DNA of 64,000 bases from Alphaproteobacteria bacterium (GTDB lineage: Bacteria > Pseudomonadota > Alphaproteobacteria > Rs-D84): NCBI GenBank assembly GCA_017463185.1, contig JAFTPS010000014.1, positions 154,546 to 218,545 of the forward strand, read 5' to 3'. Position numbers and translations under genes: made by a program. Below are positions 1,240 through 53,352 of this stretch, piece after piece. The notes beneath the pieces were generated by a model, which saw nothing but the letters and a program-made list of their open reading frames with translations, did no database searches and was not told the origin of the DNA. Numbering within the stretch: the first letter of the stretch is position 1; the number at the start of each line of letters is the position of its first letter.

Positions 1240-1490
1240 ACTACACCCTTTGTAAAAAAAACACCGCCAATAAAGGATATTGACGGTCGGGCGTTTCCAA
1301 AAATCATACTGTAAATGACTCCCATTGCGTTCAGGTTGCCCTTATTGTATTACAACGGGTGGCCCGACCAAAGGTCAGGCATAACGATGCGAATGCACCA
1401 TTTGCAAAAGTGGATAACGATGCATATCGCACCGTACAGTATGGGCTTTTGGAACCCGAACCCGCTAGTCCCCTATCGGATTCAATACTT
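1240..1490 (-). promoter_or_regulatory. Conserved structured 5' leader, copy 1 (terminator hairpin plus U8 abutting the RBS; upstream complementary antiterminator segment)
   Basis: In RNA orientation the leader reads ...GGGUUCGGG...CCUGACC..GGUCGGGCC...UAUGAUUU..GCCCGACCGUCAAUAUCCUUUAUUGGCGGUGUUUUUUUU-ACAAAGGG-N7-AUG. GGUCGGGC is complementary to GCCCGACC, which overlaps the terminator stem. The same architecture and motifs recur at 9328-9595 and 16493-16715. Confidence 0.55.
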
Positions 1491-3630: not shown

Positions 3631-4803
3631 TTATAATACCACAAACCCCAGCATTTTATCTGTGGCGGTTTGCATAGAATCACGAATTGGGTCAACGGTC
3701 AGGCGACTATAAACCTGTGTTGCGCTGGTGGATTTATGGCCAAGTGATTTACCAATAACCGGCAAACTGGCACCCGATATTGCCTGCCACGACCCCATTG
3801 TGCGACGCAGGTCATGAATCCGCATATCTGTGATGTTTGCCGCCTTTAACAAAGATTGCCACGGACGTTTCGGGTCTTCCAGATGTCCACTGGCACTTTT
3901 ACTACTCGGCAATACCCAACCTTTTTTCTTGCCTTGATTGATTTTTAACAGCAATTCACGCAACTGATTCACCATTGGAATCTGCAACGGTTGCCCACCT
4001 TTGGAATCAGGCACATATATCAACCCCGACGTAAAATCAACATGTTCCCAGCGCATAGTCAGCACATTATTCCGCCGCATCCCAGTCATCAGCGATATCA
4101 TCACATAGTTTTTGAACACATCGTTTTTACATTCCGCCAAGGCCGTCCAGAACCTTTTTAATTCATCACCATTCAAGAATCTGTCCCGACTTTTTTCTGT
4201 AAATTTACGAATTCCGCCGGCCGGATTACCACGTAACCCCATTAAGCCCTTTTTCACTGCAATCACATACATATGCTTAATCAACGACAACACCCGATTG
4301 GCCGTATATGGACTGTGTGTTTTACAAGTCTCCGCATGCAGGCGTTCAATCTCGTCCGCTTTGATACTTAACAACTTGCGATTATGAAATTGATTCAACC
4401 GGTGCTTGAACACACTGTCATCATTTACAACCGAATGTTGCTTTTTATAGATTGTGGAATATTCGGGTTTATAGATATTTTCATAAAACTGGCGCAGGGT
4501 CATATCATTCAGATTTTCCCGTCTTTGAATACTGGGGTCTGTGCCATTAGTCGCCATTTCTTTTAAGCTATGCGCCTGCCGCCGTGCATCACACAGTTTA
4601 ATCTGCCCCACACGCCCGATTTTTATACGCTTTGGTGTGCCTTGGAATTTCATATAGGCATAATAAGTCTTTGCCCCGCCATAGGTCACAATAACACACA
4701 GACCATCATGACTGCCCGTGTCATAATAAACCGCCTGCCCCGATGCAGGAACGGCTAAATTTTCCAACGCCCGTTCTGTAAAATTGATACGATTTGACGA
4801 CAT
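3631..4803 (-). CDS. int: Tyrosine site-specific integrase (P4-type)
   Basis: 390 aa. C-terminal catalytic residues R..HDLRRT..HKSTSATQVYSRL (R-H-R-Y), with an N-terminal arm-binding region. The gene directly abuts the Bro-N gene and lies about 1 kb from a tRNA 3'-end fragment. Confidence 0.85.
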   Translation of the reverse strand: MSSNRINFTERALENLAVPASGQAVYYDTGSHDGLCVIVTYGGAKTYYAYMKFQGTPKRIKIGRVGQIKLCDARRQAHSLKEMATNGTDPSIQRRENLNDMTLRQFYENIYKPEYSTIYKKQHSVVNDDSVFKHRLNQFHNRKLLSIKADEIERLHAETCKTHSPYTANRVLSLIKHMYVIAVKKGLMGLRGNPAGGIRKFTEKSRDRFLNGDELKRFWTALAECKNDVFKNYVMISLMTGMRRNNVLTMRWEHVDFTSGLIYVPDSKGGQPLQIPMVNQLRELLLKINQGKKKGWVLPSSKSASGHLEDPKRPWQSLLKAANITDMRIHDLRRTMGSWQAISGASLPVIGKSLGHKSTSATQVYSRLTVDPIRDSMQTATDKMLGFVVL

Positions 4804-5634
4804 TTATTCTTTAGCCACACGCTTTAACAGTTTTGAATTTGTGCCCGACACAACCCTTTTTCCGGTTTCTTGTTCCAGCTGTAATCGTGCCTGACGGGCA
4901 ACATTACCGCCACGCTTGGCCACCGCCATATTTTGTGCCAGTCCCATTGGATTTTCATTTTTTGCAATCTCGGTCGCAGACAGTTCCGCCAACATATTCA
5001 GAACCAATTCAGCATTCGTCATATTATCACGCAAGGATTCTTTCTTTAGCCCTTTGTGCTGTTTATATTCTTTGGTCTTCATACCCGACCAAGAACGTGT
5101 AATTTCATCTGTCAGCAAGGCGTATTCCAATCCTTTCTTAATTCCACCCTTGTCCCATTGATTGGTCAGGTCTTTACGAATTTCAATAGAACGCAACCGC
5201 TGGGCAATCCATTCATCCGAATAACCCAACCGCTGGTAATAATTCAATGCACGTTGAATTGCGATTTCGGGGTCTGATATTTCATCAATTCTTTCACTAC
5301 CCACACTGGCCAGCCACAACTTAAATGGTTCTGCTTTCTTAGATGGCACAGATTGAATCAAGCGCAACAACTGTTCTGTGTCCGCCACATCGGTCATACG
5401 CAACTTGCCATCTGGTGCAACCAATTTCAACTGGTTACAATTTGTAACCGTTTCATTTCCTTCCGCCTTCAGACGGCTTTTCAAAACCTTCCAATAATTA
5501 CGTGAATGTTGATAATCCGATTCCGTCAATGCTGCAATAACATCAACAATGGAAAAATACCACTTTTCAGCATCCGCATCCCATTGGGTTCTGATATTTG
5601 TATCTTGGAACAGTTTTAGTGTCGTATCCGTCAT
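4804..5634 (-). CDS. Bro-N domain protein (DinD / phage antirepressor KilAC-like)
   Basis: N-terminal Bro-N-like segment WDADAEKWYFSIVDVIAALTES...YWKVLKSRL and a C-terminal KilAC-like region. 276 aa, a length matching the DinD family. Contiguous with int. Confidence 0.55.
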   Translation of the reverse strand: MTDTTLKLFQDTNIRTQWDADAEKWYFSIVDVIAALTESDYQHSRNYWKVLKSRLKAEGNETVTNCNQLKLVAPDGKLRMTDVADTEQLLRLIQSVPSKKAEPFKLWLASVGSERIDEISDPEIAIQRALNYYQRLGYSDEWIAQRLRSIEIRKDLTNQWDKGGIKKGLEYALLTDEITRSWSGMKTKEYKQHKGLKKESLRDNMTNAELVLNMLAELSATEIAKNENPMGLAQNMAVAKRGGNVARQARLQLEQETGKRVVSGTNSKLLKRVAKE

Positions 5635-5819: not shown

Positions 5820-5889
5820 GTTTTAATAAAAAATGCCCCTAATCCGGGGTGTTTTTTATTAAACCAAAATTATTTTATCCCAATCAAAA

Positions 5890-5914
5890 AATCACCCAAA
5901 TGGGTGATTTTTTA
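5890..5914. terminator. Bidirectional intrinsic terminator (tcaccc-aaa-tgggtga flanked by T/A runs)
   Basis: Perfect 7-bp stem followed by a T-run, immediately downstream of the lipoprotein operon end. Confidence 0.5.
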
Positions 5915-6931
5915 TCATTTTGATATATCAGATATCAATATTTCCATCAATTCATCTGACACTTTTTTTACCAATGCATTTTCAACTGTATTACACGATG
6001 CGCCAGATTCATAATGAATTGACTTTGAAACAGAATCAGTGGACACAATTTCCATTGTTGCAGTTTCTATAAGTTTATAGGAAACAGTCAATTTAGCATC
6101 TGTTTTTTGAACTTTTTCGCCTGTCAATTGAATAGTTTTATCTGTACGATTGATATTAAATCTTTCAATTCTACCAACCAACAGATAATCAGCTATTTCC
6201 AATTGTTTTAATTTATTTAAATTTTCTCGTTTTGCTATATCATCATTCAGTAATCCTAATTCTTTTGCTTGTTTATCAAAATTACTTCTGTCGACAACGG
6301 TCAATTTTTTTGACCTAGAGATATCCTTTTCCCACGCTGTTATTAAATCAGCATCTGTTAAACAATCCCATTTTTTCTTGCCTTCAAACCCTGTTATCAC
6401 CACACTATATTTTGATTTTTTTACCAAATCTGGTGAAACATAGTCATCTGTGACAAATACTTTTGCTTCAATCTCGACTGTATATTTTCCTTTTTTTTCT
6501 GATACAGATTTTACAGAATATCCCTCTATTTTTCCTTGATATTTTTGGTTGATATTTCTTTCTTCTATGCGCAAAGATTCATCAATTTTTCCACCTTTGT
6601 AATCTACAAAAACATCTTCCTTATAATCTGCTGAAACCTGTTGTTTATCATCATCAAACCAACCATCCGTAATTGATTTAAACCAAGATTTCTTTTCAAC
6701 CTTTGCTTTTATTTCACGTGTATCTTCCAGATGATAATCAGCAGAAACTATTTTCGCACTGTCTGCACCACCAGACACCACAGAAGTCTGTCTTATAGCA
6801 TTATCAATCGCATCAATAGTAGCTTCATATTCTGATTTTCCGTATCCCGTTGCACCTACATTTTGAATTTTTGCATTTGCATAATTTATAACACCGCAAA
6901 ACATTAAAAATACAATGAAAAATTTTTTCAT
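5915..6931 (-). CDS. Secreted protein, possibly CsgG/LpoB-fold lipoprotein-operon component
   Basis: Signal peptide MKKFFIVFLMFCGVINYANA (start taken at the internal Met). C-terminal ...KYSVVITGFEG..ADYLLVGRIERFNI.. resembles CsgG-family motifs. Last gene of the four-gene operon. Confidence 0.4.
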   Translation of the reverse strand: MKKFFIVFLMFCGVINYANAKIQNVGATGYGKSEYEATIDAIDNAIRQTSVVSGGADSAKIVSADYHLEDTREIKAKVEKKSWFKSITDGWFDDDKQQVSADYKEDVFVDYKGGKIDESLRIEERNINQKYQGKIEGYSVKSVSEKKGKYTVEIEAKVFVTDDYVSPDLVKKSKYSVVITGFEGKKKWDCLTDADLITAWEKDISRSKKLTVVDRSNFDKQAKELGLLNDDIAKRENLNKLKQLEIADYLLVGRIERFNINRTDKTIQLTGEKVQKTDAKLTVSYKLIETATMEIVSTDSVSKSIHYESGASCNTVENALVKKVSDELMEILISDISK

Positions 6932-6991
6932 TTTTACATCCTTTTTTGTAAAAAAACACCCAAACAAAATTTGAGTGTTTTTTATATTCGT

Positions 6992-7594
6992 TTACCAGGT
7001 TTGAGTATCTTTATCCACCAACTTTTTAATAATCTTATAATCTGACCATAATTCAGTACCATCTGATACATCCGTCAAAGATAAATCAAAAGTATATTCA
7101 ATCAGTTTATTTCTGCGATCAACATTTGTATTTTTTTGAGAAATACGCCCTGTCAGTGATAAATCAAATGCTTTTACTGTATTATTTTTCTTTACTGTTG
7201 ATTTATCAACCAACGAAGATTCGGCCAATTCTCTGGACGCAGCAACATCTGAATTTCTGTTTGAACCAAAAGAATTAGTTGCTTTTACATTTCCACTGCG
7301 TCTGACTTCTTTGGTTATAAACATTGTTAAATCGCGCATATTCAGCCGTTGTTGTGTATCATTTACAATTTCCGAAACCTTCATAATATATGGCTGACCA
7401 TTTGGTTTTGGGCTGGCCAATTCATGTGCCAGCATATCATTTAACATACTTTGGGCAGCAACTTCAAAATCATTACTTGATAATGTTGCAGATACAAATT
7501 CCTGGGATTCTGAATCAGTCAATACTTTTGGACTAGAAGAACATCCCACCCCCATAAAAGCTATTGCAATCATTAAATAAAAAACTTTTTTCAT
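6992..7594 (-). CDS. Lipoprotein (DUF799/LpoB-like?)
   Basis: Lipobox MGVGC|SSS. 200 aa. C-terminal pattern LSLTGRISQ...FDLSLTDVSDGTELWS is reminiscent of LpoB/CsgG-like folds. The family assignment is tentative. Confidence 0.4.
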   Translation of the reverse strand: MKKVFYLMIAIAFMGVGCSSSPKVLTDSESQEFVSATLSSNDFEVAAQSMLNDMLAHELASPKPNGQPYIMKVSEIVNDTQQRLNMRDLTMFITKEVRRSGNVKATNSFGSNRNSDVAASRELAESSLVDKSTVKKNNTVKAFDLSLTGRISQKNTNVDRRNKLIEYTFDLSLTDVSDGTELWSDYKIIKKLVDKDTQTW

Positions 7595-7607
7595 TTTTTT
7601 CCTTTTA

Positions 7608-7979
7608 TTATTGTTCTATTTTTGTATTTGATACATAAACTTTATAATCCACAGCCTTGCTTGATGGCGCGACAATGGTCCAATAAAAAGGCAATCCTTT
7701 TTTAACTGTCTGTTTTACATATTTAGACAACAAAGTATTTATTTTTATTCCACTATCATTAAACCAAGCTGTTGAATAATACAAATCTGTATCATTATAC
7801 ACTTCACCAGAAACGGTTATTTTCATATTTCCATTTTCTACATATTCAACCCCATTGATACGAATATTTTTTATACAATCGTCTGGCAGGCTATCTATAT
7901 GTATATGTTCAGGATTCAGATTTTGGGTGGTCGTACAACCACCCAAAACAATTCCTAAAATACAAATAATTTTTTTCAT
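7608..7979 (-). CDS. Small lipoprotein (DUF4810-like?)
   Basis: Lipobox LGGC|TTT. 123 aa. Sits in the operon between two other lipoproteins. Confidence 0.4.
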   Translation of the reverse strand: MKKIICILGIVLGGCTTTQNLNPEHIHIDSLPDDCIKNIRINGVEYVENGNMKITVSGEVYNDTDLYYSTAWFNDSGIKINTLLSKYVKQTVKKGLPFYWTIVAPSSKAVDYKVYVSNTKIEQ

Positions 7980-7992
7980 AATTTACCTGTAT

Positions 7993-9327
7993 TTAGTTCA
8001 GTTTACCAACAACTATTGCTGGCACTGCATTTGCCGTTGGGATACGAACAAATACAATTGCATTTTCAATACCTTCTGGGATAACAACTTCTAAGCCATC
8101 ATTGATAAATAATTTTCTATCAACAGGCATATTGACACGTGCCGTTTGAATTTCTGTTGGTATAGAATCCCAAGATCTTAAATCCCACGGTTTCTTTACA
8201 CTCATAACCCCGGTTACTGCCGCCGCTGTTGCTGCTGCCCTAAACGGAGTATCCTTAGCCGCTTCATTTGCTGCATATCCTGCTGCAGTTGCGGCGGCAA
8301 TTTTTCCAATTTCAAACGCTACTGAACTTATAATATTACGTGTCTTATATTTGTTATAATCAGTTTTAACAACAGAATCAACATTTACTAATTGTTGTGT
8401 TGTAACCGTTGTATCGCCAGATTTAACACTTATTGTTTCTAATGCTTTGGTTCCTGGGAATACATCAGGGATAGTCAGTTCAATACCCGCTTCAACCCCT
8501 AATGCTGACAATGGTTGTGTCAAAGGTTTCAAAACATCTGGTACCAATGAACGTTTTTGCAATTGTCCAACCATACCGTTTTCAAAAACAACATAAACAC
8601 TTCCTTTTTTCAAACCAGCAACATCTGATTTAACAAAAGTATTTTTTGGTGCAAATTTTGCAACTCTGCTCATACCATTGTTCGCATTACTATAATCACC
8701 GCTGGCACCATCATACAACGCCATCAACCAAGTAGTATATGGATTTGCATAATCTTTCATTGCGGTAATATCATCATCCAAAGACGATACATCTTTACTA
8801 ATGGAATCAGTAATAGAATCCAAACTTGGCACATTGATACCAAATTCTTTTAATATTTTTTGATCTTCTTTAAATTTCTCTTGTTCTTTTGCAATTTCAT
8901 CACTATTTTCGCTTATATTTTCTTTTTGTAAATCATATACCTGATTAAACACTTGCTTTGCATAAGAATCATCATTTGCAATCAGTCCAATTCCTTCATA
9001 AGTCTTGAACATAATCTTTTCATAACTTTTGATTTTATATGATGAATCTTCATCGGTTTCACCCTTTAATATAGAATTTACCGGTGAAAAACATGTTTCA
9101 AGTCCTTCTGCATTATTTGCCCATAAATATGCATTACCACACTGCAATCCACCCAAATAAACATTATTCGGTTCTTGATTTAATACAGTTGCCTTAGCCA
9201 TCTTTTCTGCTGCAACTTCGTAATTACCATTTGAAAAATCCTCGCGATATTGTTTGGAAATTTCTGCGTAATTACCATTACAGGCCGCCAATACCAGACA
9301 TCCTGTCAATAAAGTTATTTTTTTCAT
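7993..9327 (-). CDS. Lipoprotein, first gene of the four-gene envelope operon
   Basis: Start taken at MKKITLLTGCLVLAAC (lipobox LAAC). Ala/Thr-rich C-terminus. Immediately preceded by leader copy 2. Confidence 0.45.
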   Translation of the reverse strand: MKKITLLTGCLVLAACNGNYAEISKQYREDFSNGNYEVAAEKMAKATVLNQEPNNVYLGGLQCGNAYLWANNAEGLETCFSPVNSILKGETDEDSSYKIKSYEKIMFKTYEGIGLIANDDSYAKQVFNQVYDLQKENISENSDEIAKEQEKFKEDQKILKEFGINVPSLDSITDSISKDVSSLDDDITAMKDYANPYTTWLMALYDGASGDYSNANNGMSRVAKFAPKNTFVKSDVAGLKKGSVYVVFENGMVGQLQKRSLVPDVLKPLTQPLSALGVEAGIELTIPDVFPGTKALETISVKSGDTTVTTQQLVNVDSVVKTDYNKYKTRNIISSVAFEIGKIAAATAAGYAANEAAKDTPFRAAATAAAVTGVMSVKKPWDLRSWDSIPTEIQTARVNMPVDRKLFINDGLEVVIPEGIENAIVFVRIPTANAVPAIVVGKLN

Positions 9328-9595
9328 TGCACATCCCTTTGTTAAAAAATAAACCGTCAATGGAATTTGACGGTCGGGGAGTTAGCAAATCATATATGTC
9401 AATGATTCTGTCGCTTTTAGGTTTCCCCTGTTGTATAACGAACAGCCCCCCGACTGATTTACAGTCAGGGATAAATAACGACACAAAACCACAGGAATGA
9501 CATCGGATAACGATGCCATACGCAATTTTGCACCGGACATATAAAGGCTTGCTACAGCCCCGAACCCAATTCCCATTGGATTCATTTCCTAGTTT
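9328..9595 (-). promoter_or_regulatory. Conserved structured 5' leader, copy 2
   Basis: RNA orientation: GGGUUCGGGG...CCCUGAC..CAGUCGGGGGGCUGUUCGUUAUACAACAGG...UAUGAUUU...CCCCGACCGUCAAAUUCCAUUGACGGUUUAUUUUUU-AACAAAGGG-N8-AUG. Terminator-like hairpin plus U-tract. GUCGGGG is complementary to CCCCGAC. Confidence 0.55.
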
Positions 9596-9620
9596 AACAT
9601 AAAATATATAAAAAAGGCAA

Positions 9621-9650
9621 AAACAAAAAACGCCGCCAATCGGCGGGTTT
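9621..9650. terminator. Intrinsic terminator (cgccgccaatcggcggg flanked by A- and T-runs)
   Basis: GC stem-loop with a poly-A upstream and poly-T downstream. Lies downstream of rpmJ on the minus strand. Confidence 0.5.
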
Positions 9651-9785
9651 TTATTTTTTCTTGAATCCCTGTTTCGCTTTGAATTTTGGATTATCAGGGT
9701 CAATCAAGATAACTTGCTTTCCACGACGGATTTGTTTAACATTACCGCGTTTCTTCCAAGCCTTTAAGGAACTTAAAAATTTCAT
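9651..9785 (-). CDS. rpmJ: 50S ribosomal protein bL36 (type B, non-zinc form)
   Basis: A 44-aa ORF absent from the ORF track (below the size cutoff): MKFLSSLKAWKKRGNVKQIRRGKQVILIDPDNPKFKAKQGFKKK. This closely matches the YkgO/bL36 type-B pattern MKV.SSLK..K.R....IV.R.G...VI.K.NPRFKA.QG. It sits between the leader and a terminator. Confidence 0.8.
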   Translation of the reverse strand: MKFLSSLKAWKKRGNVKQIRRGKQVILIDPDNPKFKAKQGFKKK

Positions 9786-10101: not shown

Positions 10102-10398
10102 ATGAAACAGCAGGTTTTGAAAGCATTGGCAAATCCGGCGCACATATTTTATGTGCCATATAATTTAGCTGTGCTGAATTTTATATCGCTGTTCATTATT
10201 TTTGCGATTATTTTTATAACAGCGATGGTTGTAACGCGTGGAAAGATGGCGATAAATCCACTGTATTTCTTGGTTGTTGTGATAATAACACATTCAATAA
10301 TTGCAATTTTTTCTAAGCGGGACCCACAACTGGGCCAAATTGTAACGGCAAAAATTCAGTTGATGAAACGTAAAATACCCAGAAAATTGGCGGCATAA
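10102..10398 (+). CDS. virB3: Type IV secretion system protein VirB3-like
   Basis: 98 aa with two TM segments. Size, topology and position directly upstream of virB4 support the call. RBS ggaggg lies 8 nt upstream. Confidence 0.6.
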   Translation: MKQQVLKALANPAHIFYVPYNLAVLNFISLFIIFAIIFITAMVVTRGKMAINPLYFLVVVIITHSIIAIFSKRDPQLGQIVTAKIQLMKRKIPRKLAA

Positions 10399-10401
10399 GA
10401 T

Positions 10402-12828
10402 ATGAACACTATAAACGGATTTTTTGATTACTTTGCGGGCAGTGGATTTCCAATCACTTTGACTATTTTGGTGATGGTTGTTTTGTTTGTTTTTATTGTT
10501 TTAATGATGTTTGTACCAACTTTGACGCGTCGTATATTTCCGCATTTTGGATATGCCAAGTACTCAAATTACCTGCCGTTTGGAACGGTTTATAATGATA
10601 ATTCTATGTCATTGACCGATGGTGGATTGGTGCGCGCATACCGCGTGGCTGGTGTTCAAACCAGTATGCAGGATGACGCAACCAAAGAAAAATTTTTAGA
10701 ATTACGGGCGCAGTTATTTAATCAGATACGCGACCCGAATGTTGTTTTGCGTTTTTATATGGTGCGGGACGCGGCCGACGAAAATACGGATTATGAATTT
10801 GATCAACCGACTTTGCAAAGTATTTATAATAAATGGCGTGGCCAGGGATTAAAAATTTTCTTGAACAGTTATTATATAACCATATCTGTTTATGGACCAA
10901 ACGCGCGCGAAAGGTTAAATCAATATGGTAATTACATAGAATCAATATTAGCGGCGTATCGTCCACAAGTTTTACGTAATGACAGTTCTGATAATATGGC
11001 ACGATTTTTTGGTCGTATATTATCCCCTATTTCAAAGCCTGCACCTATGCGTGCTGATAATAATATCGCAAATCTGACAACGGTTGATGATATTGAATTT
11101 TTGCGTGATGGTATTGTACGTTATATCAGTGGTGGCAATCAATCCTTTGCAGCGTGTGTTTCTTTCAAGATATCACCGGATTATTTGGACGAAGAATTCT
11201 TTGATACTGTATCAACCATCCAGACAGAAATGATTTCTATGAATGGTTTTCGTATTATGGGTAATGCTGATATAGAAAGTACTATCCGTCAACGCCGCAG
11301 TACGGCTGATGAAAACACAACATCAACCGAGGAACAAATATCATCAGCCCAAAGTGCAATGGATGAAAATATATCTGGTAATCAAAGTCTGATAAATTAT
11401 TATCCTTTATTTGTAATATTTGGTGCAACCCGCGAAGATTTACAAAAATCAGTTGCAGAATTTAAAAAAATAGCCGCACAATTTGGTATTTCACCTATTG
11501 TTGAAACATTTGCATCCCAGGTTTCTTGGTTTGCACAAATTCCGGGATTTGATACATTTCCGCGCAGTTTTAAATTATTATCCCGCGCGGCGGCGATTTC
11601 AATTCCTATGTCAACCCAGCCACGTGGTGTTGAAAATTCTGATTGGGGGCCTGGCCCATTGGTTGTTTTTCCAACCGCCCAGGGAACACCGTACCAGTTC
11701 CAATTCCACGTATCGGACAAGCCTGCCGCCGTGGCACATACACTTACAATTGGTCCAACCGGTGGTGGTAAAACAACCTTGTTCAGTTTTCTGATAGCGC
11801 AATCTTTACGTCATCCAAAACTAAAAGCGTTTTTCTTTGATCGTAACAAAGGTGCGGAAATATTCACATTGGCAGTTGGTGGAAAATATATCACTATGCA
11901 GGGCAAAGAAAAAAATACAGACCCCATGGCACAAAATTTCCTGACGCGTTTAAACCCACTTAAAATGCCAGATACTGCGGCAAATCGCGCATTTTTACGT
12001 CGCTGGTTTGCGATTATATCGGGCCAGAATGATGCGGCATCGGCCGATGAAATCGCACGCGCGGTATCTGTGAATTTTGATTATTTGTCCGACCAGGATA
12101 AATTGTTAAAAAATTTATGGGAAAGTTGTTTTTCTTCATCTGGTAATATGCGCCCTGCCCTGAAAAAATGGATTGACCCGTTGCAGTACGGTGATATGTT
12201 TAATGATACATCTGATACATTAGATTTACAGGCGCGTCTTACAACATTTGATTTTACCGATATTTTACAAGATGAAACATTGGCCCCGGCGGTAATATCG
12301 TATATATTGCACAGAATAAATAATATCACTGTATCGGGTGGTAATCCTTCGTTGATTATGATTGACGAAACCGCTCCTATGTTGGAAAACAAAATGTTCC
12401 GTGACAGTTTTATAGCCGGCCTGCAAGAGGGGCGTAAAAATCGCCAGGCATACATGGCTGCATTCCAGCGCGCAAATGTTCTGGATAAGTTAGGAATTGG
12501 TGATGTGGTTCGTGGCCAAGCCCAGACAGTCTTGTTTTTCCGCAACCCAGCGGCAGACAGCAACGATTATGCACATTGGAATTTAAATCCATTAGAAATG
12601 GCGTTTATCCAAGGCAAGGCTTATCCTAACTTAAAACGTGCTTTGTTATTATCACGTCCTGTCACAGGTGAATCTGTGATTTTAAACACAGAATTGGGTG
12701 GATTGGGCAATTTATTGCGTTTATTTGAATCTGGGCGTTCGTCTGTATTACTGGCCGAAGAATTATATAAAATGTACGGCAATAATTTTGTAAATGAATA
12801 TCTAAAAAAACAGGGCGCGGCCGAGTAA
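10402..12828 (+). CDS. virB4: Type IV secretion ATPase VirB4/CagE/TrbE family
   Basis: 808 aa with N-terminal TM helices, Walker A GPTGGGKTT and Walker B IMIDETAPML. Overall architecture matches VirB4. Confidence 0.85.
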   Translation: MNTINGFFDYFAGSGFPITLTILVMVVLFVFIVLMMFVPTLTRRIFPHFGYAKYSNYLPFGTVYNDNSMSLTDGGLVRAYRVAGVQTSMQDDATKEKFLELRAQLFNQIRDPNVVLRFYMVRDAADENTDYEFDQPTLQSIYNKWRGQGLKIFLNSYYITISVYGPNARERLNQYGNYIESILAAYRPQVLRNDSSDNMARFFGRILSPISKPAPMRADNNIANLTTVDDIEFLRDGIVRYISGGNQSFAACVSFKISPDYLDEEFFDTVSTIQTEMISMNGFRIMGNADIESTIRQRRSTADENTTSTEEQISSAQSAMDENISGNQSLINYYPLFVIFGATREDLQKSVAEFKKIAAQFGISPIVETFASQVSWFAQIPGFDTFPRSFKLLSRAAAISIPMSTQPRGVENSDWGPGPLVVFPTAQGTPYQFQFHVSDKPAAVAHTLTIGPTGGGKTTLFSFLIAQSLRHPKLKAFFFDRNKGAEIFTLAVGGKYITMQGKEKNTDPMAQNFLTRLNPLKMPDTAANRAFLRRWFAIISGQNDAASADEIARAVSVNFDYLSDQDKLLKNLWESCFSSSGNMRPALKKWIDPLQYGDMFNDTSDTLDLQARLTTFDFTDILQDETLAPAVISYILHRINNITVSGGNPSLIMIDETAPMLENKMFRDSFIAGLQEGRKNRQAYMAAFQRANVLDKLGIGDVVRGQAQTVLFFRNPAADSNDYAHWNLNPLEMAFIQGKAYPNLKRALLLSRPVTGESVILNTELGGLGNLLRLFESGRSSVLLAEELYKMYGNNFVNEYLKKQGAAE

Positions 12829-15882: not shown

Positions 15883-15914
15883 AAAAAAACACCGGTAATT
15901 GCCGGTGTTTTTGT
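15883..15914. terminator. Bidirectional intrinsic terminator (caccggtaattgccggtg)
   Basis: Perfect palindrome flanked by A- and T-runs, between the convergent ychF and OMP genes. Confidence 0.55.
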
Positions 15915-16492
15915 TAGAAACGATAACCAATACTGGTTGTTATGGCAAAACCAGATGTATCAACTGTATATTCATAACCGTTTACATCAGTTTCAAAATT
16001 CATAATTTGATATTCTAATCCACCCTTTATAGACAGATTATCATTGAAATTATATTTCACACCGGCGCCAATGCCATAGGCAACGGCTGTATCATCAAAG
16101 CTTAAACTTCCGTCATCATATTCCATATTTGCAAATCCTAATTCTGCTGAAATGTATGGTTGTGTTTTTCCGTCCAAGAATGGAACAATAGCTCTTAAAC
16201 TAACACCAAATATTTCTTCCGTTTCTGTTTCTGAAAATTCTGGTGCAATACCAATTTGAATACCGTCAAAATCAATGCCGACATATGCAGAACCATTACC
16301 GTTAAAAGCAGAAGAATCTGCTTCTGTAATTTTTGTTCCGTCTAATTCATATTCCGCAGATGTGTTTGAATACAAACTGATTCCATATTCAATAAAAAAT
16401 CGTGGGTTTAATTTATTTTGTTGAACACTTTCTTCTGCAAAAGAAGTCACCGGCAACAAAGCCAATGCGGCAATTATTGAAATTTTTTTCAT
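15914..16492 (-). CDS. Small outer-membrane beta-barrel protein (Omp25/OmpW-like)
   Basis: Signal peptide MKKISIIAALALLPVTSFA and a C-terminal ...TTSIGYRF. Preceded by leader copy 3. Confidence 0.6.
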   Translation of the reverse strand: MKKISIIAALALLPVTSFAEESVQQNKLNPRFFIEYGISLYSNTSAEYELDGTKITEADSSAFNGNGSAYVGIDFDGIQIGIAPEFSETETEEIFGVSLRAIVPFLDGKTQPYISAELGFANMEYDDGSLSFDDTAVAYGIGAGVKYNFNDNLSIKGGLEYQIMNFETDVNGYEYTVDTSGFAITTSIGYRF

Positions 16493-16715
16493 ATTTTCTC
16501 CCTTTGGTTAAAATTTAAACCGTCAGAAATGACGGTCGGGGTGGTTGATAAATCATAGTTTAGGAAATGACTCTGTTGTCTTTGGGAAAATCCCTGTTAT
16601 ATAACAAACAGCCCCCCGACCGTTATAGGTCAGGGATATTTCAGTGTGTAATAAACACTGCCTAAACTATTGGGTTATCACACCCCGAACCCACATCCCT
16701 GCAGGTTCATTAAAA
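16493..16715 (-). promoter_or_regulatory. Conserved structured 5' leader, copy 3
   Basis: RNA orientation: GGGUUCGGGG...CCCUGACC..GGUCGGGGGGCUGUUUGUUAUAUAACAGG..UAUGAUUU..CCCCGACCGUCAUUUCUGACGGUUUAAAUUUU-AACCAAAGGGAG-N4-AUG. Confidence 0.5.
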
Positions 16716-17254: not shown

Positions 17255-17343
17255 AAACATCACAGAACACAATGGACTCCGGCCTAGTATCACCCACAAA
17301 AATTTTCAATTTTTGCGGGACCCGAAGCCGGGGTTATGTGCAA

Positions 17344-17406
17344 TCACTACCCACTAACCACTTACACTAACCACTATAAAAATCCCGCCATTGGCAGGAT
17401 TTTTAT
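17344..17406 (+). ncRNA. Candidate small RNA 3' end: CA-rich motif (cactaaccacttacactaaccacta) followed by an intrinsic terminator; copy A
   Basis: A 33-nt motif nearly identical to 43881-43913, in both cases immediately followed by aaaaatccc-GC hairpin-tttt. No ORF is present. Confidence 0.3.
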
Positions 17407-43332: not shown

Positions 43333-43686
43333 TTATATGATTTTATCAAATTCCTGTCTGCGTTCATGATATATTTTATCGTACACGCGATAATTGCTTT
43401 CACGATTGATGATTTTCTCTAAATCCTGTAATACAGATTTCAGATTCAGAAATGCACTAAACACCGCAGTATATATTTCTTCGTGTGTCGGTCTGTTTTT
43501 GCGCGATTCAGTTATTGCCTGTGCGATTTCCAACAATGTTTTATTTTTTGCTTCTTCGTTCATGACCGTACCCCTATCGTAAAATCCCACTTTGTGGAAT
43601 AAACAAAAACCGCATTTGAAAACAAAAGCGGTTGGAGTTTTAGAACAATTAAGCGAATTGCATGCCTTATTCAATATATTCGGCAT
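43333..43686 (-). CDS. Hypothetical small protein (true start possibly at internal MNEEAKN, about 76 aa)
   Basis: ORF only; no motifs recognised. Confidence 0.25.
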   Translation of the reverse strand: MPNILNKACNSLNCSKTPTAFVFKCGFCLFHKVGFYDRGTVMNEEAKNKTLLEIAQAITESRKNRPTHEEIYTAVFSAFLNLKSVLQDLEKIINRESNYRVYDKIYHERRQEFDKII

Positions 43687-43880
43687 ACTCCAACCGCAAT
43701 GGTCGGAGTATTTAACACCTCTTCAGGTGCGCTCAAAGGGTTCTAAAGCCCCACACTGAAAAACCTCAGTGCCAGCACATTATATGATATATAAAATACA
43801 ATTTCAAATGCTTAGATAAATAAAAGTTTATCAGAGTGGTAAGTGTTTGCACTATAATGTGCGGCATTCGCCACACGCAT

Positions 43881-43941
43881 TCACTAATCACTAACCACTT
43901 ACACTAACCACTAAAAAATCCCCCCATCTGGGGGATTTTTT
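43881..43941 (+). ncRNA. Candidate small RNA 3' end: CA-rich motif plus intrinsic terminator; copy B
   Basis: tcactaatcactaaccacttacactaaccacta followed by aaaaaatcccccc-atct-gggggatttttt. A possible promoter (ttatca..N19..tataat) lies about 60 nt upstream at 43818-43848. Confidence 0.3.
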
Positions 43942-45274
43942 AGTCATATGGATTTTCGGATTTTTCATAATCTATTATAATCGGCAGGTGTTCCCACTTT
44001 AACGCCGTCGCAATTCCACGCCGTAAATATCGTGTGTATGATTCGGGGATATCCGATGCACCGCCGACATTTATTGTAATTTTCATTGGGTGGCGACCGG
44101 TCTGGCGCGCAAATTTTATTTTCATTGGACGTTTTAGACGCGACATAGGTGGCTGTCGTTCCGCAACCAATTTTTCCACAATGCGGTTTACCAAACTGGT
44201 TGGTGCCTGGGCCATTGAAATATCCCATTGTTCATAAATGCGTCGGAACATATTCTGAACACCCATCCCCGTTTCCGCGGATACGGCCAAAATCATAGGC
44301 TTTATAATTTGATGAAAAGAATTTGAAAATTGATGTTTTAACTTTAACAATTTTTCATCGCGAATTTCAGGTTCAACCAAGTCCCACTTGTTCAGTGCAA
44401 CACACAAAATTTTGCCCGCGTTATACACACGTGCGGCAATTCCCAAAGCCTGGTTTTCAATATTACGCGTAGCATCCACCATTAAAATAACCACATCTGC
44501 CTTATCAATTGCATCCAGTGATTTTAACGCAGACAATGTTTCAACATCATCTGTCACCCCCGCTTTGCGGCGCAGACCCGCCGTATCCATCAGAATGATA
44601 TCGCGTCCATAAAATTTGGTCGGGATTTTTACTGTGTCGCGTGTAATTCCCGGCGCATCCATAACAATCTGACGCCGCTCCCCCAGGACGCGATTTACAA
44701 ATGTAGATTTTCCAACATTTGGCTGGCCCAAAACGGCAATTTTAATACGGTTATCGGTGGCCTTGTCTGGGGAGGGCTGGGTTGCTGCATCACCCGCAAT
44801 TTTGTCTAAAAATTCATAGATTTCCGTGAATCCGGTCTTGTGCTCGGCTGAAATTAAAACAGGTTCACCAAACCCCAGTTTATAAAAATCGTGAATATTC
44901 CCCAGTCTTTTTTGTGATTCGGATTTATTGACCAACAATAAAATCGGTGCCTTGGTTTTACGACGAACCAATCGGGCCCAGTCTAAATCCTTGCTTGTCA
45001 AGCCAACGCGTCCATCAACAACAAATAAAACGGCATCGGCATCAGCAATTGCCGCAATTGCCATATTTGTGGAATCCAGCGCAATCCCAGATTTTGCGCT
45101 TTCCAAACCAGCTGTATCAAATAATTGATATGGGCGATTACAAAATACCCCCCCCATACAGTCACGGGTTACCCCAGGACGGTCGTGAACCAGCGCGTCC
45201 CGCGTTCCTGTCAGGGCGTTATAAAGTGTTGACTTGCCCGTGTTCGGGCGACCTGCAATAGTTATCTTTATCAT
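43940..45274 (-). CDS. der: Ribosome biogenesis GTPase Der (EngA)
   Basis: Tandem GTPase domains (GRPNTGKST, GQPNVGKST) and a C-terminal KH-like domain. Start taken at MIKITIAG. Confidence 0.9.
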   Translation of the reverse strand: MIKITIAGRPNTGKSTLYNALTGTRDALVHDRPGVTRDCMGGVFCNRPYQLFDTAGLESAKSGIALDSTNMAIAAIADADAVLFVVDGRVGLTSKDLDWARLVRRKTKAPILLLVNKSESQKRLGNIHDFYKLGFGEPVLISAEHKTGFTEIYEFLDKIAGDAATQPSPDKATDNRIKIAVLGQPNVGKSTFVNRVLGERRQIVMDAPGITRDTVKIPTKFYGRDIILMDTAGLRRKAGVTDDVETLSALKSLDAIDKADVVILMVDATRNIENQALGIAARVYNAGKILCVALNKWDLVEPEIRDEKLLKLKHQFSNSFHQIIKPMILAVSAETGMGVQNMFRRIYEQWDISMAQAPTSLVNRIVEKLVAERQPPMSRLKRPMKIKFARQTGRHPMKITINVGGASDIPESYTRYLRRGIATALKWEHLPIIIDYEKSENPYD

Positions 45275-47983: not shown

Positions 47984-48060
47984 GTAAAATAATCAAAAGG
48001 GACGGCAGTTTCGTCCCTTTTAGTTTCTTGAATAATTTTATTATTCCTATTATAATTTAT

Positions 48061-48261
48061 CCGTCAACGGGTTTTCCGTTGACGAGGCCTGATAACCTCA
48101 CTCAGTGCGTCGGAATAGATTTTTCTTGTTGCGACGTTAAATCATCTCCTGACCCCGGTCAGGAGGGTTGTGAATATATTGAATAAGCACGCAATTCACT
48201 GAGTTGTTATCAGCCTCCTGACCACCTAAATACGGTGGTTTTGTTTTTATCTGGAGGAAAA
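48061..48261 (+). promoter_or_regulatory. Structured 5' leader with long-range P1 stem, internal hairpin and RBS-proximal terminator hairpin (candidate riboswitch/attenuator)
   Basis: gaggcctgataacctcactcagtg (48085-48108) pairs with cactgagttgttatcagcctc (48194-48214). The inner hairpin is ctcctgacc-ccg-gtcaggag. cctcctgacc is repeated at 48213. accacc-taaatac-ggtggt + tttgttttt lies immediately before the RBS ggagg and ATG. Confidence 0.4.
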
Positions 48262-52653: not shown

Positions 52654-52848
52654 TCATGCACCGACTTTTAATGTTTCAATTTTCAATTCGGCTTCTTTTA
52701 ACAATTGTTCGCAGTATGCTTTCAATTTGATTCCCTGTTCATATGCTGCGACCGAATCGGCCAACGGTAATTCGCCAGATTCCATTTTTTTTACCAGTTC
52801 CATCAACTGCTTGTACGCATCTTCAAAACTCAACTTATTTTCGTCCAT
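52654..52848 (-). CDS. xseB: Exodeoxyribonuclease VII small subunit
   Basis: 64 aa; FEDAYKQLMELVKKMESGELPLADSVAAYEQGIKL matches the XseB pattern. Confidence 0.8.
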   Translation of the reverse strand: MDENKLSFEDAYKQLMELVKKMESGELPLADSVAAYEQGIKLKAYCEQLLKEAELKIETLKVGA

Positions 52849-52932
52849 TTTTATCCCCTTAAAATCACGAATTTACGGTACAAAAAGAAACGAAAATATG
52901 CAATAAAAAAACGCCCAAACGGGCGTTTTTTA

Positions 52933-53352
52933 TTATTTAACGGTTGTGGTTGCATTACGATTCCACTTCCAGACTTCTTCGCCTGTACCCTGTACCAAAG
53001 GACGTTCTTTGCCATAGGAAATAGTGGAAATGCGACTTGCATCAACGCCGTCATTCACGATAACTGCTTTTGCAGCATTTGCACGGCGTGCACCCAAAGC
53101 CAAGTTGTATTCTGTTGAGCCACGTTCGTCGCAATTACCAGCGATTTGGATTTTTGTATCTGCGTGGTTTTTCATATACAACGCCTGACCCAGCAAATTA
53201 TCTTTTGCTTCGTCAGAAATTTCAGATGAATTTAACGCGAAGAATACGCGCTGTTCGTTCAAATCAGCTGGTTCTACAATCTTAGATGAACCGCCACATG
53301 CGGCCAACAAGCCTGCAATACCCGCCAACATAGCAAAGTTTTTAATTTTCAT
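52933..53352 (-). CDS. pal: Peptidoglycan-associated lipoprotein (OmpA family)
   Basis: Lipobox LLAAC, with the OmpA_C motif ...NLALGARRANAAKAVIV..G.....I...SYGKERP. Confidence 0.75.
   Translation of the reverse strand: MKIKNFAMLAGIAGLLAACGGSSKIVEPADLNEQRVFFALNSSEISDEAKDNLLGQALYMKNHADTKIQIAGNCDERGSTEYNLALGARRANAAKAVIVNDGVDASRISTISYGKERPLVQGTGEEVWKWNRNATTTVK

Follow-up and report, generated by a model that had tools for sequence, protein, structure and literature searches.

The leader ahead of a four-gene lipoprotein operon

The DNA considered here is a 64-kb stretch (the window; positions are counted from its first letter) of contig JAFTPS010000014.1, from a bacterium of the alphaproteobacterial lineage Rs-D84. 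On its minus strand, a non-coding region of about 250 nucleotides (nt) lies between the terminator of a bL36-like gene and the ATG (9327) of a lipoprotein gene, the first of four genes arranged as an operon. Most of this region (9336-9586, minus strand; called copy B) is probably a cis-acting transcription-attenuation leader with its own promoter, a reading that we hold with good confidence, and it apparently represents a large, undescribed family of leaders that is absent from Rfam.

A structured leader had been placed at 9328-9595 by an initial annotation of the window, and these limits are right to about 10 nt, the first hairpin starting from 9583 and a -10-like hexamer occupying 9591-9596. 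The leader string quoted in that annotation (CCCCGACCGTCAAATTCCATTGACGGTTTATTTTTT) was located at 9344-9379 of the minus strand, where it occurs once in the window and was matched in none of 100 shuffles. It is followed by AACAAAGGGA and then, as had been stated, by the ATG (9327-9325) of the first lipoprotein gene, which encodes 444 amino acids (aa). The predicted fold of the full leader has a z-score of -6.13 relative to shuffled sequences, none of 200 shuffles having equalled it. From 5' to 3', the leader and its flanking signals contain the following elements.

9615-9620, minus strand: -35-like hexamer TTGCCT, with an 18-nt spacer; 8 of 12 matches, below the threshold of the promoter scanner
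9591-9596, minus strand: -10-like hexamer TAAACT, 7 nt ahead of H1
9562-9583, minus strand: H1, the 5'-terminal hairpin, GAAUCCAAU-GGGA-AUUGGGUUC, with a conserved GGGA loop (covariation, 99 copies)
9544-9561, minus strand: H2, a short conserved hairpin GGGGCU...AGCCUU, then a YAUA motif (three modelled pairs, 96.2% paired)
9511-9535, minus strand: H3, hairpin CGGUGC...GCAUCG, then UUAUCC at 9505-9510 (two-sided changes in 5 of 6 pairs; 97.0% paired)
9479-9505, minus strand: variable hairpin CGAUGU...GUGUCG, then UUAUUUAU; a weakly supported reading by eye, differing in length and sequence among copies
9462-9470, minus strand: strand X (CCCUGACUG), which pairs with Y to give an anti-antiterminator hairpin (prediction and covariation)
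9446-9454, minus strand: strand Y (GUCGGGGGG), the common partner of X or Z (covariation)
9408-9445, minus strand: P2 helix, with a conserved internal loop UUAUACAACA / AAAA(G) and a GGG-loop-CCU tip (two-sided changes in 10 of 10 modelled pairs)
9388-9407, minus strand: P3 hairpin AAUCAU...AUGAUU, its stem conserved in sequence (98.3% paired)
9382-9387, minus strand: junction UGCUAA, directly 3' of P3
9373-9381, minus strand: strand Z (CUCCCCGAC), which forms P1 (the antiterminator) with Y and overlaps the base of the terminator (covariation)
9344-9375, minus strand: intrinsic terminator GACCGUCAA-AUUCCA-UUGACGGUU, then UAUUUUUU (terminator scan: hairpin 9375-9352 plus U-run)
9334-9339, minus strand: Shine-Dalgarno-like AAGGGA, about 15 nt past the terminator; the ATG is at 9325-9327

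The terminator scan also called a second hairpin, at 9471-9447, and this is the X:Y hairpin. Pairing of Y with Z gives P1, the closing helix of a three-way junction whose other helices are P2 and P3. Strand Z is common to the 3' strand of P1 and to the bottom three to four pairs of the terminator, which abut the U-run, and this means that P1 and a functional terminator exclude each other.

The leader family and its competing helices

Relatives of the leader were sought by scanning one genome per GTDB species with the pattern GTCGGG-N44-62-TATGATTT-N4-14-CCCGACC, which yielded at least 117 stretches. Three matches, in a KSB1 metagenome-assembled genome (MAG), a Ruminococcus MAG and a Roseobacter genome, were set aside as chance; the remaining matches listed come from at least about 70 gut-derived MAGs of uncultured Alphaproteobacteria, labelled Candidatus Enterousia, 'Rickettsiales bacterium' or 'Alphaproteobacteria bacterium' and sampled from human, ruminant, horse, chicken, mouse and termite. 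Among the matches listed, a single MAG has six. The same pattern found no match in viral contigs, and a phage origin was rejected on this result. Candidatus Enterousia belongs to the order Rs-D84, with genomes mostly below 1 Mb; these bacteria seem to rely on other cells, and many of the surface proteins that they encode are uncharacterised (PMC12306168). No description of the leader family was found in the literature searched. The affiliation of the MAGs of loci L012 and L086 is confirmed as alphaproteobacterial by their two-piece (permuted) transfer-messenger RNA genes of the alphaproteobacterial type (L012 4574-4951 and L086 6909-7287, 148-149 bits), which lie about 0.5 kb from leaders.

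Two covariance models were used to delimit the family. Model R1 describes the 3' domain and was built on 40 copies; across 98 sources it gave 118 matches, some of which the pattern had missed. Model R2 describes the 5' domain and gave 99 matches, each of them 0-49 nt upstream of a same-strand R1 match and not one on its own, so that the 5' and 3' domains must be regarded as one unit. The pattern and the two models together define a strong set of at least about 105 copies in at least about 70 MAGs.

Two competing structures are both maintained by compensatory change. The OFF structure, which consists of the X:Y hairpin, P2, P3 and the terminator, was scored over 118 copies: 94.0% of the cells are paired compared to 81.9% in shuffles, the covariation score is 0.404 versus 0.182 in shuffles and no more than 0.136 with slid partners, and two-sided changes occur in 28 of the 30 pairs. 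For the ON structure, in which P1 replaces X:Y, the corresponding values are 96.1% versus 81.6% paired and a score of 0.427 versus 0.160.

Each competing helix can also be followed by itself. The X:Y hairpin is predicted by RNAfold in 111 of 116 instances and has two-sided changes in 6 of its 7 aligned pairs. P1 is complete (9/9 pairs) in 82 of the 105 strong copies, and its three variable pairs show two-sided changes in 31, 35 and 21 cells. The terminator stem keeps at least seven of eight pairs in 100 of the 105 strong copies, with at least six U in the next 10 nt in 102, and seven of its eight pairs have two-sided changes. Position 7 of strand Y (column 47 of alignment A5) covaries both with X (column 2) and with Z (column 262), as a true alternative-pairing switch predicts. 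The terminator/antiterminator arrangement of the initial annotation is thus present and under selection, in that the terminator, X:Y and Y:Z all keep their pairing through compensatory changes in 118 copies, and the arrangement is richer than the one described there, being a three-strand switch (X/Y/Z) with an obligatory 5' domain. At the level of sequence, this switch architecture is shown by the covariation.

The 5' domain is conserved in the same manner. In the R2 alignment of 99 copies, 96.4% of cells are paired versus 83.1% in shuffles, and the covariation score is 0.500 versus 0.252; H1 has two-sided changes in all nine of its pairs and 95.9% of its cells paired. Hairpins H1, H2 and H3 were recovered by RNAalifold from 61 copies. 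In P3, the 3' arm of the stem was fixed by the search pattern, yet the 5' arm was free and is nevertheless conserved. Pairs of the G-U type are frequent (e.g. UG:40 at columns 5/44 and GU:92 at columns 189/247), arguing for selection on the RNA of the minus (leader) strand.

Within the window, a blastn search with the leader found two further copies of about 74% identity, and R1 with filters off found exactly three strong copies (9336-9471, 121.7 bits; 16502-16636, 109.2 bits; 1246-1381, 92.5 bits) and two weak variants. The initial annotation was therefore correct that copy B shares its motif set with another copy, and its total of two copies has to be raised to three. All three strong copies are on the minus strand and each is immediately before a gene.

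1246-1486, minus strand: copy A, ahead of a 408-aa autotransporter gene (13-1239; Autotransporter, E = 2.6e-14); R1 92.5 bits, R2 55.0 bits
16502-16711, minus strand: copy C, ahead of a gene for a 192-aa beta-barrel outer-membrane protein (15914-16492; OMP_b-brl, E = 1.4e-11); R1 109.2 bits, R2 47.6 bits
43592-43780, minus strand: second class of leader design; R1 36 bits; X/Y/Z = CUCCGACC / GGUUGGAG / CUCCAACC
48060-48256, plus strand: second class of leader design; R1 34.7 bits; X/Y/Z = CUCCUGACC / GGUCAGGAG / CUCCUGACC

The second class, which also occurs outside the window at L002 7820-7935 and near L055 4466, has the promoter, the 5' hairpins, the X/Y/Z strands and the overlapping terminator, and it carries in place of P2 a plain hairpin whose loop is the conserved GAAUAUAUUGAAUAA. 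The variant at 48060-48256 is ahead of a gene for a signal-peptide protein (MKYLLTFVFGIFLATNAQA). Two other structured sequences were observed in the window. A 66-nt direct repeat of 79% identity (17340-17405 and 43877-43942) is built of ACTAACCACT-like units and has at its end a terminator-like hairpin, CCCGCCATTGGCAGG / CCCCCCATCTGGGGGG, with a T-run behind it. A sub-threshold match to Phe_leader at 52818-52936 on the plus strand (45.2 bits against a gathering score of 55, E = 2.6e-4) could be an attenuator or just a terminator, the terminator hairpin giving most of the score.

Proposed mechanism and the downstream genes

Across the family, 56 of 64 copies have a -10-like hexamer whose last base lies 6-7 nt ahead of H1, a hexamer being counted if it has at least 4/6 matches and carries A as its second and T as its sixth base; TTG is over-represented at -36 to -34, counted from the first hairpin. 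The fixed distance of these signals implies that the transcript should begin at H1, and we infer a transcription start at about 9584-9586 for copy B. The RNA that would be made from the predicted start has H1, X:Y and the terminator in its minimum-energy fold in all three strong copies of the window, and this OFF fold lies 15-17 kcal/mol below the best fold in which P1 is enforced. Because the OFF structure is the minimum-energy fold, the default state should be termination. With additional upstream bases included, Z and the terminator are paired to the 5' end in the global minimum-energy fold. The X:Y hairpin of copy B is worth -16.4 kcal/mol as a local structure; as bare duplexes, Y:Z reaches -19.2 kcal/mol and Y:X -13.4 kcal/mol, and P1 is longer than X:Y by two to three pairs. 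In the comparison of Y and Z strands among copies, the cognate duplex beats the non-cognate one in 97% of cases (p = 4e-13).

The same energetics bear on the suggestion that the element is a constitutive or physically controlled attenuator and stabiliser with no specific ligand, allowing a fixed low level of read-through while its 5' hairpins protect the mRNA, as in the ompA 5' untranslated region (UTR). The kinetic competition between X and Z could, in a variant of this suggestion, respond to temperature, transcription speed or Mg2+. The OFF structure is indeed the minimum-energy fold, a stable 5'-terminal hairpin opens the transcript, and the downstream genes encode abundant envelope proteins; however, a fixed attenuation level would give little reason to maintain some 250 nt in which many unpaired positions are invariant and two helices covary with one strand, and we regard this alternative as unlikely.

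A further possible interaction connects the two ends of the leader. Duplexes between H1 and its own terminator average -12.6 kcal/mol, compared to -10.9 kcal/mol for non-cognate combinations (better in 77%; p = 1.8e-5), and four control pairings show no cognate advantage like this one. Column covariation between H1 and the terminator loop gave no clear register: the pairing z of the best mutual-information pairs is below 3, and the loop columns are unaligned insertions. The H1-terminator link is thus supported statistically, by the duplex-energy test only. A strand at the H1/H2 junction, W (GGGUUCGGGG), matches Y at position 7 (chi-square p = 1e-7). W might act as a decoy for X, although its cognate advantage with X is non-significant (p = 0.25) and that with Z is small (0.44 kcal/mol, p = 3.5e-4); the correlation of W with Y could reflect shared ancestry.

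The complementary ends could also be read at the level of DNA, as the terminal inverted repeats of a mobile repeat, MITE-like or otherwise. Such an element would be in keeping with the many diverged copies per genome and with the different genes behind the leader in different genomes. We nevertheless consider it very improbable: the G-U pairs are strand-specific, compensatory changes keep the internal helices, the copies keep their orientation and their spacing to the start codon (38-60 nt in 86 of 105), no viral contig matches, and the promoter lies beyond the putative inverted repeats, so that the conserved unit extends past H1. The H1-terminator complementarity itself tolerates G-U pairs.

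For a cis-acting attenuation leader, the following sequence of events can be proposed. During transcription the X:Y hairpin would be the first to form, leaving Z free; free Z would then allow the terminator to form, and transcription would stop before the operon (default OFF). For read-through, Z would have to displace X from Y, in a toehold-like manner that starts from the extra pairs of P1, and formation of P1 would pull the base of the terminator off its U-run. A trans factor acting on the three-way junction and/or the 5' domain could decide whether invasion occurs before the 3' arm of the terminator has been made. Such a factor might be a small molecule, an ion or a protein, and either activation or repression would be possible. 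H1 may in addition capture the terminator or kiss its loop, and in this way link the two domains.

A narrower form of this scheme, which we entertain only tentatively, is an ON-type riboswitch in which a small molecule or ion stabilises P1 and so blocks termination. Its aptamer would comprise the P1-P2-P3 junction with its UAUACAACAG/AAAG internal loop, AAC junction and P3 sequence, and perhaps the 5' domain as well. Conserved unpaired nucleotides do lie inside covarying helices, the expression platform overlaps P1, several copies per genome precede a coherent gene set, and the second class (43592-43780 and 48060-48256) keeps the platform and alters the P2 core, as riboswitch variants do. Against a simple aptamer stand the length of about 250 nt with two obligatory domains, the X strand, which is unusual in ON riboswitches, and the failure of known riboswitch families to match even at E = 10; moreover, the P3 stem keeps its sequence instead of covarying, as sites recognised by a protein or another RNA more typically do.

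Another alternative is a protein-dependent attenuator of the PyrR, TRAP or LicT type, its protein binding the GGGA loop of H1, the P3 stem or the X:Y hairpin, and either stabilising the anti-antiterminator (repression) or the junction (activation). The three hairpins in series would suit this alternative, as would the invariant GGGA in H1 and GUCAU/AUGAU in P3, and a global regulator would explain a heterogeneous gene set. The loop context of H1 in many copies, ACAGGGAUGU, presumably resembles CsrA-type sites with GGA in a loop. No candidate regulator protein was identified in the window or the loci, however, a result that counts against a regulated attenuation leader more generally, and no regulator gene recurs in linkage with leaders, save a few small unannotated proteins. 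A dedicated binding protein is possible but, in our judgement, doubtful.

The genes behind the leaders form a coherent if imperfect set. A start codon with a Shine-Dalgarno sequence follows Z by 38-60 nt on the same strand in 86 of 105 copies, and 79% of the downstream proteins have a hydrophobic N-terminus, versus 38% of background open reading frames (ORFs). Pfam families among 92 downstream proteins include Autotransporter (8), OMP_b-brl (6) and Chlam_PMP (4), with further matches to YadA_anchor, Porin_4, PilS, LicD and GT2 glycosyltransferases; most of the 92 have no Pfam family. Since the leaders precede mostly genes for secreted, outer-membrane and lipoproteins, they probably co-ordinate the cell-surface proteome of these reduced-genome gut bacteria. 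Many of the downstream genes encode small (120-280 aa) cysteine-rich secreted proteins with no Pfam family and a recurrent C-terminal motif, x-C-[YFH]-Y-x-x (at loci including L009, L038, L047, L055, L088, L090, L096, L110 and L117), and these look like a lineage-specific surface-protein family.

Behind copy B itself, and just upstream of it, the genes and signals are as follows.

7993-9327, minus strand: gene 1, 444-aa lipoprotein with lipobox LAAC, no Pfam family
7608-7979, minus strand: gene 2, 123 aa, DUF1425/YcfL-like (24.1 bits, cut-off 28.3; orthologues are annotated DUF1425)
6992-7594, minus strand: gene 3, LpoB-family lipoprotein (PF13036, 92.9 bits)
5915-6931, minus strand: gene 4, CsgG-like lipoprotein (PF03783, 29.9 bits)
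5886-5913: palindromic terminator after gene 4
9631-9785, minus strand: bL36-like gene of 44 aa (9651-9785; Ribosomal_L36 25.7 bits, cut-off 26.1) with its own terminator (9631-9646); a neighbour, outside the element

The rpmJ (bL36) gene thus does lie just upstream, where the initial annotation had put it, and is insulated by its terminator. The claim that the leader controls the whole operon (5915-9327) is a reasonable inference: the four genes are on one strand with gaps of 13, 13 and 60 nt, no minus-strand terminator-like site was found within 5915-9327 and promoter-like matches there are below chance, a terminator ends the array, and the cluster is conserved in relatives at 40-65% identity. 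The leader accompanies the cluster in only three of seven relatives, which limits this claim; it is directly ahead in L126, and in L124 and L127 it is two genes further upstream, before a longer operon that encodes an 87-aa protein, a beta-barrel protein and then the four genes.

Several observations touch on this neighbourhood. In L126 (2501-4081), gene 1 has been over-extended upstream across the leader (P0027, 526 aa versus about 445 aa in homologues), and gene callers have placed spurious 64-67-aa ORFs on the leader (L118 2752-2946; window 9382-9585); both are annotation artefacts that arise because the leader is a long structured 5' UTR. A lipoprotein of 87-93 aa (MKK...C-S-[LM]-L...P-K-M-[IV]-V-x-C-Q) is just upstream of the leaderless cluster in L122 (2157-2432) and L123 (2149-2430), and a homologous small lipoprotein has its own leader in L108 (4192-4452), which suggests mobility of the leader among adjacent envelope genes. 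A phage-type integrase gene and a Bro-N-domain gene border the operon on one side (3631-5634, minus strand), and VirB3/VirB4 type IV secretion genes border it on the other (10102-12828, plus strand, diverging from rpmJ); judged by these genes, the neighbourhood may be an integrated or conjugative element.

Other points, besides the missing regulator, weigh against a surface-directed attenuation leader. Promoter, termination and read-through are all predicted, and the promoter of copy B is weak (8/12 matches) and was not called by the scanner. The ON fold is 15 kcal/mol above the OFF fold in nearest-neighbour calculations, and P1 would need substantial help or a kinetic route. The search pattern fixed GTCGGG, TATGATTT and CCCGACC, and the conservation of these blocks is partly built in, although copies found solely by the covariance model also keep them; because related copies are not independent, significance is overstated by the shuffle controls. 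The regulon is not purely envelope, since some leaders are followed by genes for GT2 glycosyltransferases, a UvrD-like helicase or small cytoplasmic proteins. Finally, the orthologous cluster lacks a leader in four of the seven relatives (L122, L123, L125 and L128). A universal linkage of leader and operon was rejected on this count, and the patchy presence argues that the leader is a portable module rather than a fixed attribute of the four-gene operon.

If the attenuation reading is correct, its implications extend beyond one operon. Rs-D84 bacteria (Candidatus Enterousia) are uncultured, have genomes below 1 Mb, and occur commonly in the guts of humans, ruminants, horses, chickens, mice and termites. 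Three copies and two variants of the leader occur within 64 kb, and autotransporters, beta-barrel proteins, lipoproteins, small cysteine-rich secreted proteins and surface glycosyltransferases are encoded behind leaders; this density and position make the leader a strong candidate for the main device that controls how the cell presents itself to its host or partner. For RNA biology, the family offers an orphan switch that is new and rich in natural covariation, a design that combines three competing strands with a 5'-3' link, and possibly a functional explanation for the poorly understood sRNA-Xcc1 family. The most far-reaching version, which is speculative and which we think may well not hold in full, is an orphan riboswitch-like master switch of the surface proteome, operated by X/Y/Z toehold exchange and the H1-terminator link in response to a host or partner signal, with the widespread sRNA-Xcc1 family as its stripped-down aptamer core.

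Comparison with known regulatory RNAs

No Rfam 15 family was found at gathering thresholds in the whole window, and this includes the known riboswitch and leader families (c-di-GMP-I/II, T-box, Mg, Mn, ykkC and others). With E <= 10 on 9250-9700, the only matches were sRNA-Xcc1 (below threshold) and weak terminator-type matches at the rpmJ terminator. The core of copy B (9364-9455) aligns with positions 1-87 of the 87 in the sRNA-Xcc1 model (RF02221) and only the outermost pair of P1 is non-canonical, although the score of 36.4 bits, against a gathering score of 53, places the core outside the family by that measure. The shared architecture consists of an outer helix, a first hairpin with an AUACAA internal loop and a small GNRA-like tip, and a second hairpin, and in the leader family the outer helix and the two hairpins are supported by covariation. 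Eight other family members match sRNA-Xcc1 only (34.0-41.7 bits), and copies A and C do not reach E = 1. The second-class copy of L002 scores 36.6 bits with the same model.

sRNA-Xcc1 is an 88-nt Xanthomonas RNA that has been seen on Northern blots (PMC2996969), it is multi-copy in Xylella (PMC12189769), and it occurs upstream of symE in Xanthomonas integron cassettes (bioRxiv 10.1101/2025.06.18.660453). The leader family is likewise multi-copy, but its hosts are gut Alphaproteobacteria rather than Xanthomonadaceae and their relatives, and it has mostly envelope genes downstream and no integron context, unlike the integron or genomic-island setting of sRNA-Xcc1. Moreover, sRNA-Xcc1 has been described as an 88-nt trans-acting small RNA (sRNA), whereas the junction of the leader is embedded in about 250 nt with an obligatory 5' domain, the X strand and an overlapping terminator. 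These differences bear on the alternative that the element is a stand-alone trans-acting sRNA gene related to sRNA-Xcc1, its adjacency to the operon being incidental or a matter of read-through only. Matches of 34-42 bits in copy B and eight other members, together with a predicted promoter and terminator of its own, would fit such a gene. The fixed orientation and distance to the start codon (38-60 nt in 86 of 105) would not, nor would the absence of a separate promoter signal between terminator and gene, and mutually exclusive P1 and terminator helices would be purposeless in a stand-alone sRNA; we judge this alternative quite improbable.

Two other classes of leader fit poorly. A leader-peptide attenuator (trp, phe or his type) was rejected on the finding that the 67-codon ORF at 9382-9585 is not conserved, the frame being cut short in copy C (10 codons) and in copy A (6 codons); only 22 of 64 copies have the A that would create an AUG where H1 begins. 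An RNA thermometer (ROSE or fourU type), whose regulated helix sequesters the Shine-Dalgarno sequence or start codon, is not indicated, the Shine-Dalgarno sequence (9334-9339) lying outside the supported helices and past the U-run of the terminator. In regulon, the leader family can be compared with the c-di-GMP-I (GEMM) riboswitch and the RfaH/ops (JUMPStart) leaders, which are multi-copy elements found before outer-membrane, adhesin, pilus and surface-glycan genes. The comparison is by regulon only: GEMM had no match at any threshold, and the GGCGGU in the 3' arm of the terminator is not a full ops element and varies among copies (GGUGGU, GACGGU).

The closest mechanistic parallels are with transcriptional riboswitches and PyrR-type attenuators. 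The leader has the generic features of the former, namely a covarying structured domain in the 5' UTR and a terminator that is exclusive with a helix of the putative aptamer. As in transcriptional ON riboswitches such as the pbuE adenine riboswitch, the 3' strand of P1 in a three-way junction overlaps the 5' arm of the terminator, and the terminator fold is thermodynamically favoured, so that in both cases the switch must act during transcription. Unlike pbuE-type switches, the leader has an extra strand, X, that pre-occupies the 5' strand of P1, and a second obligatory domain of about 110 nt. The resulting series of X:Y, then Y:Z, then Z within the terminator, corresponds to the anti-antiterminator, antiterminator and terminator of the PyrR-type attenuators. 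No PyrR-like binding motif or protein was identified, and the polarity differs as well: in the pyr case the antiterminator is the default and the protein stabilises the anti-antiterminator, whereas the predicted default of the leader is termination.

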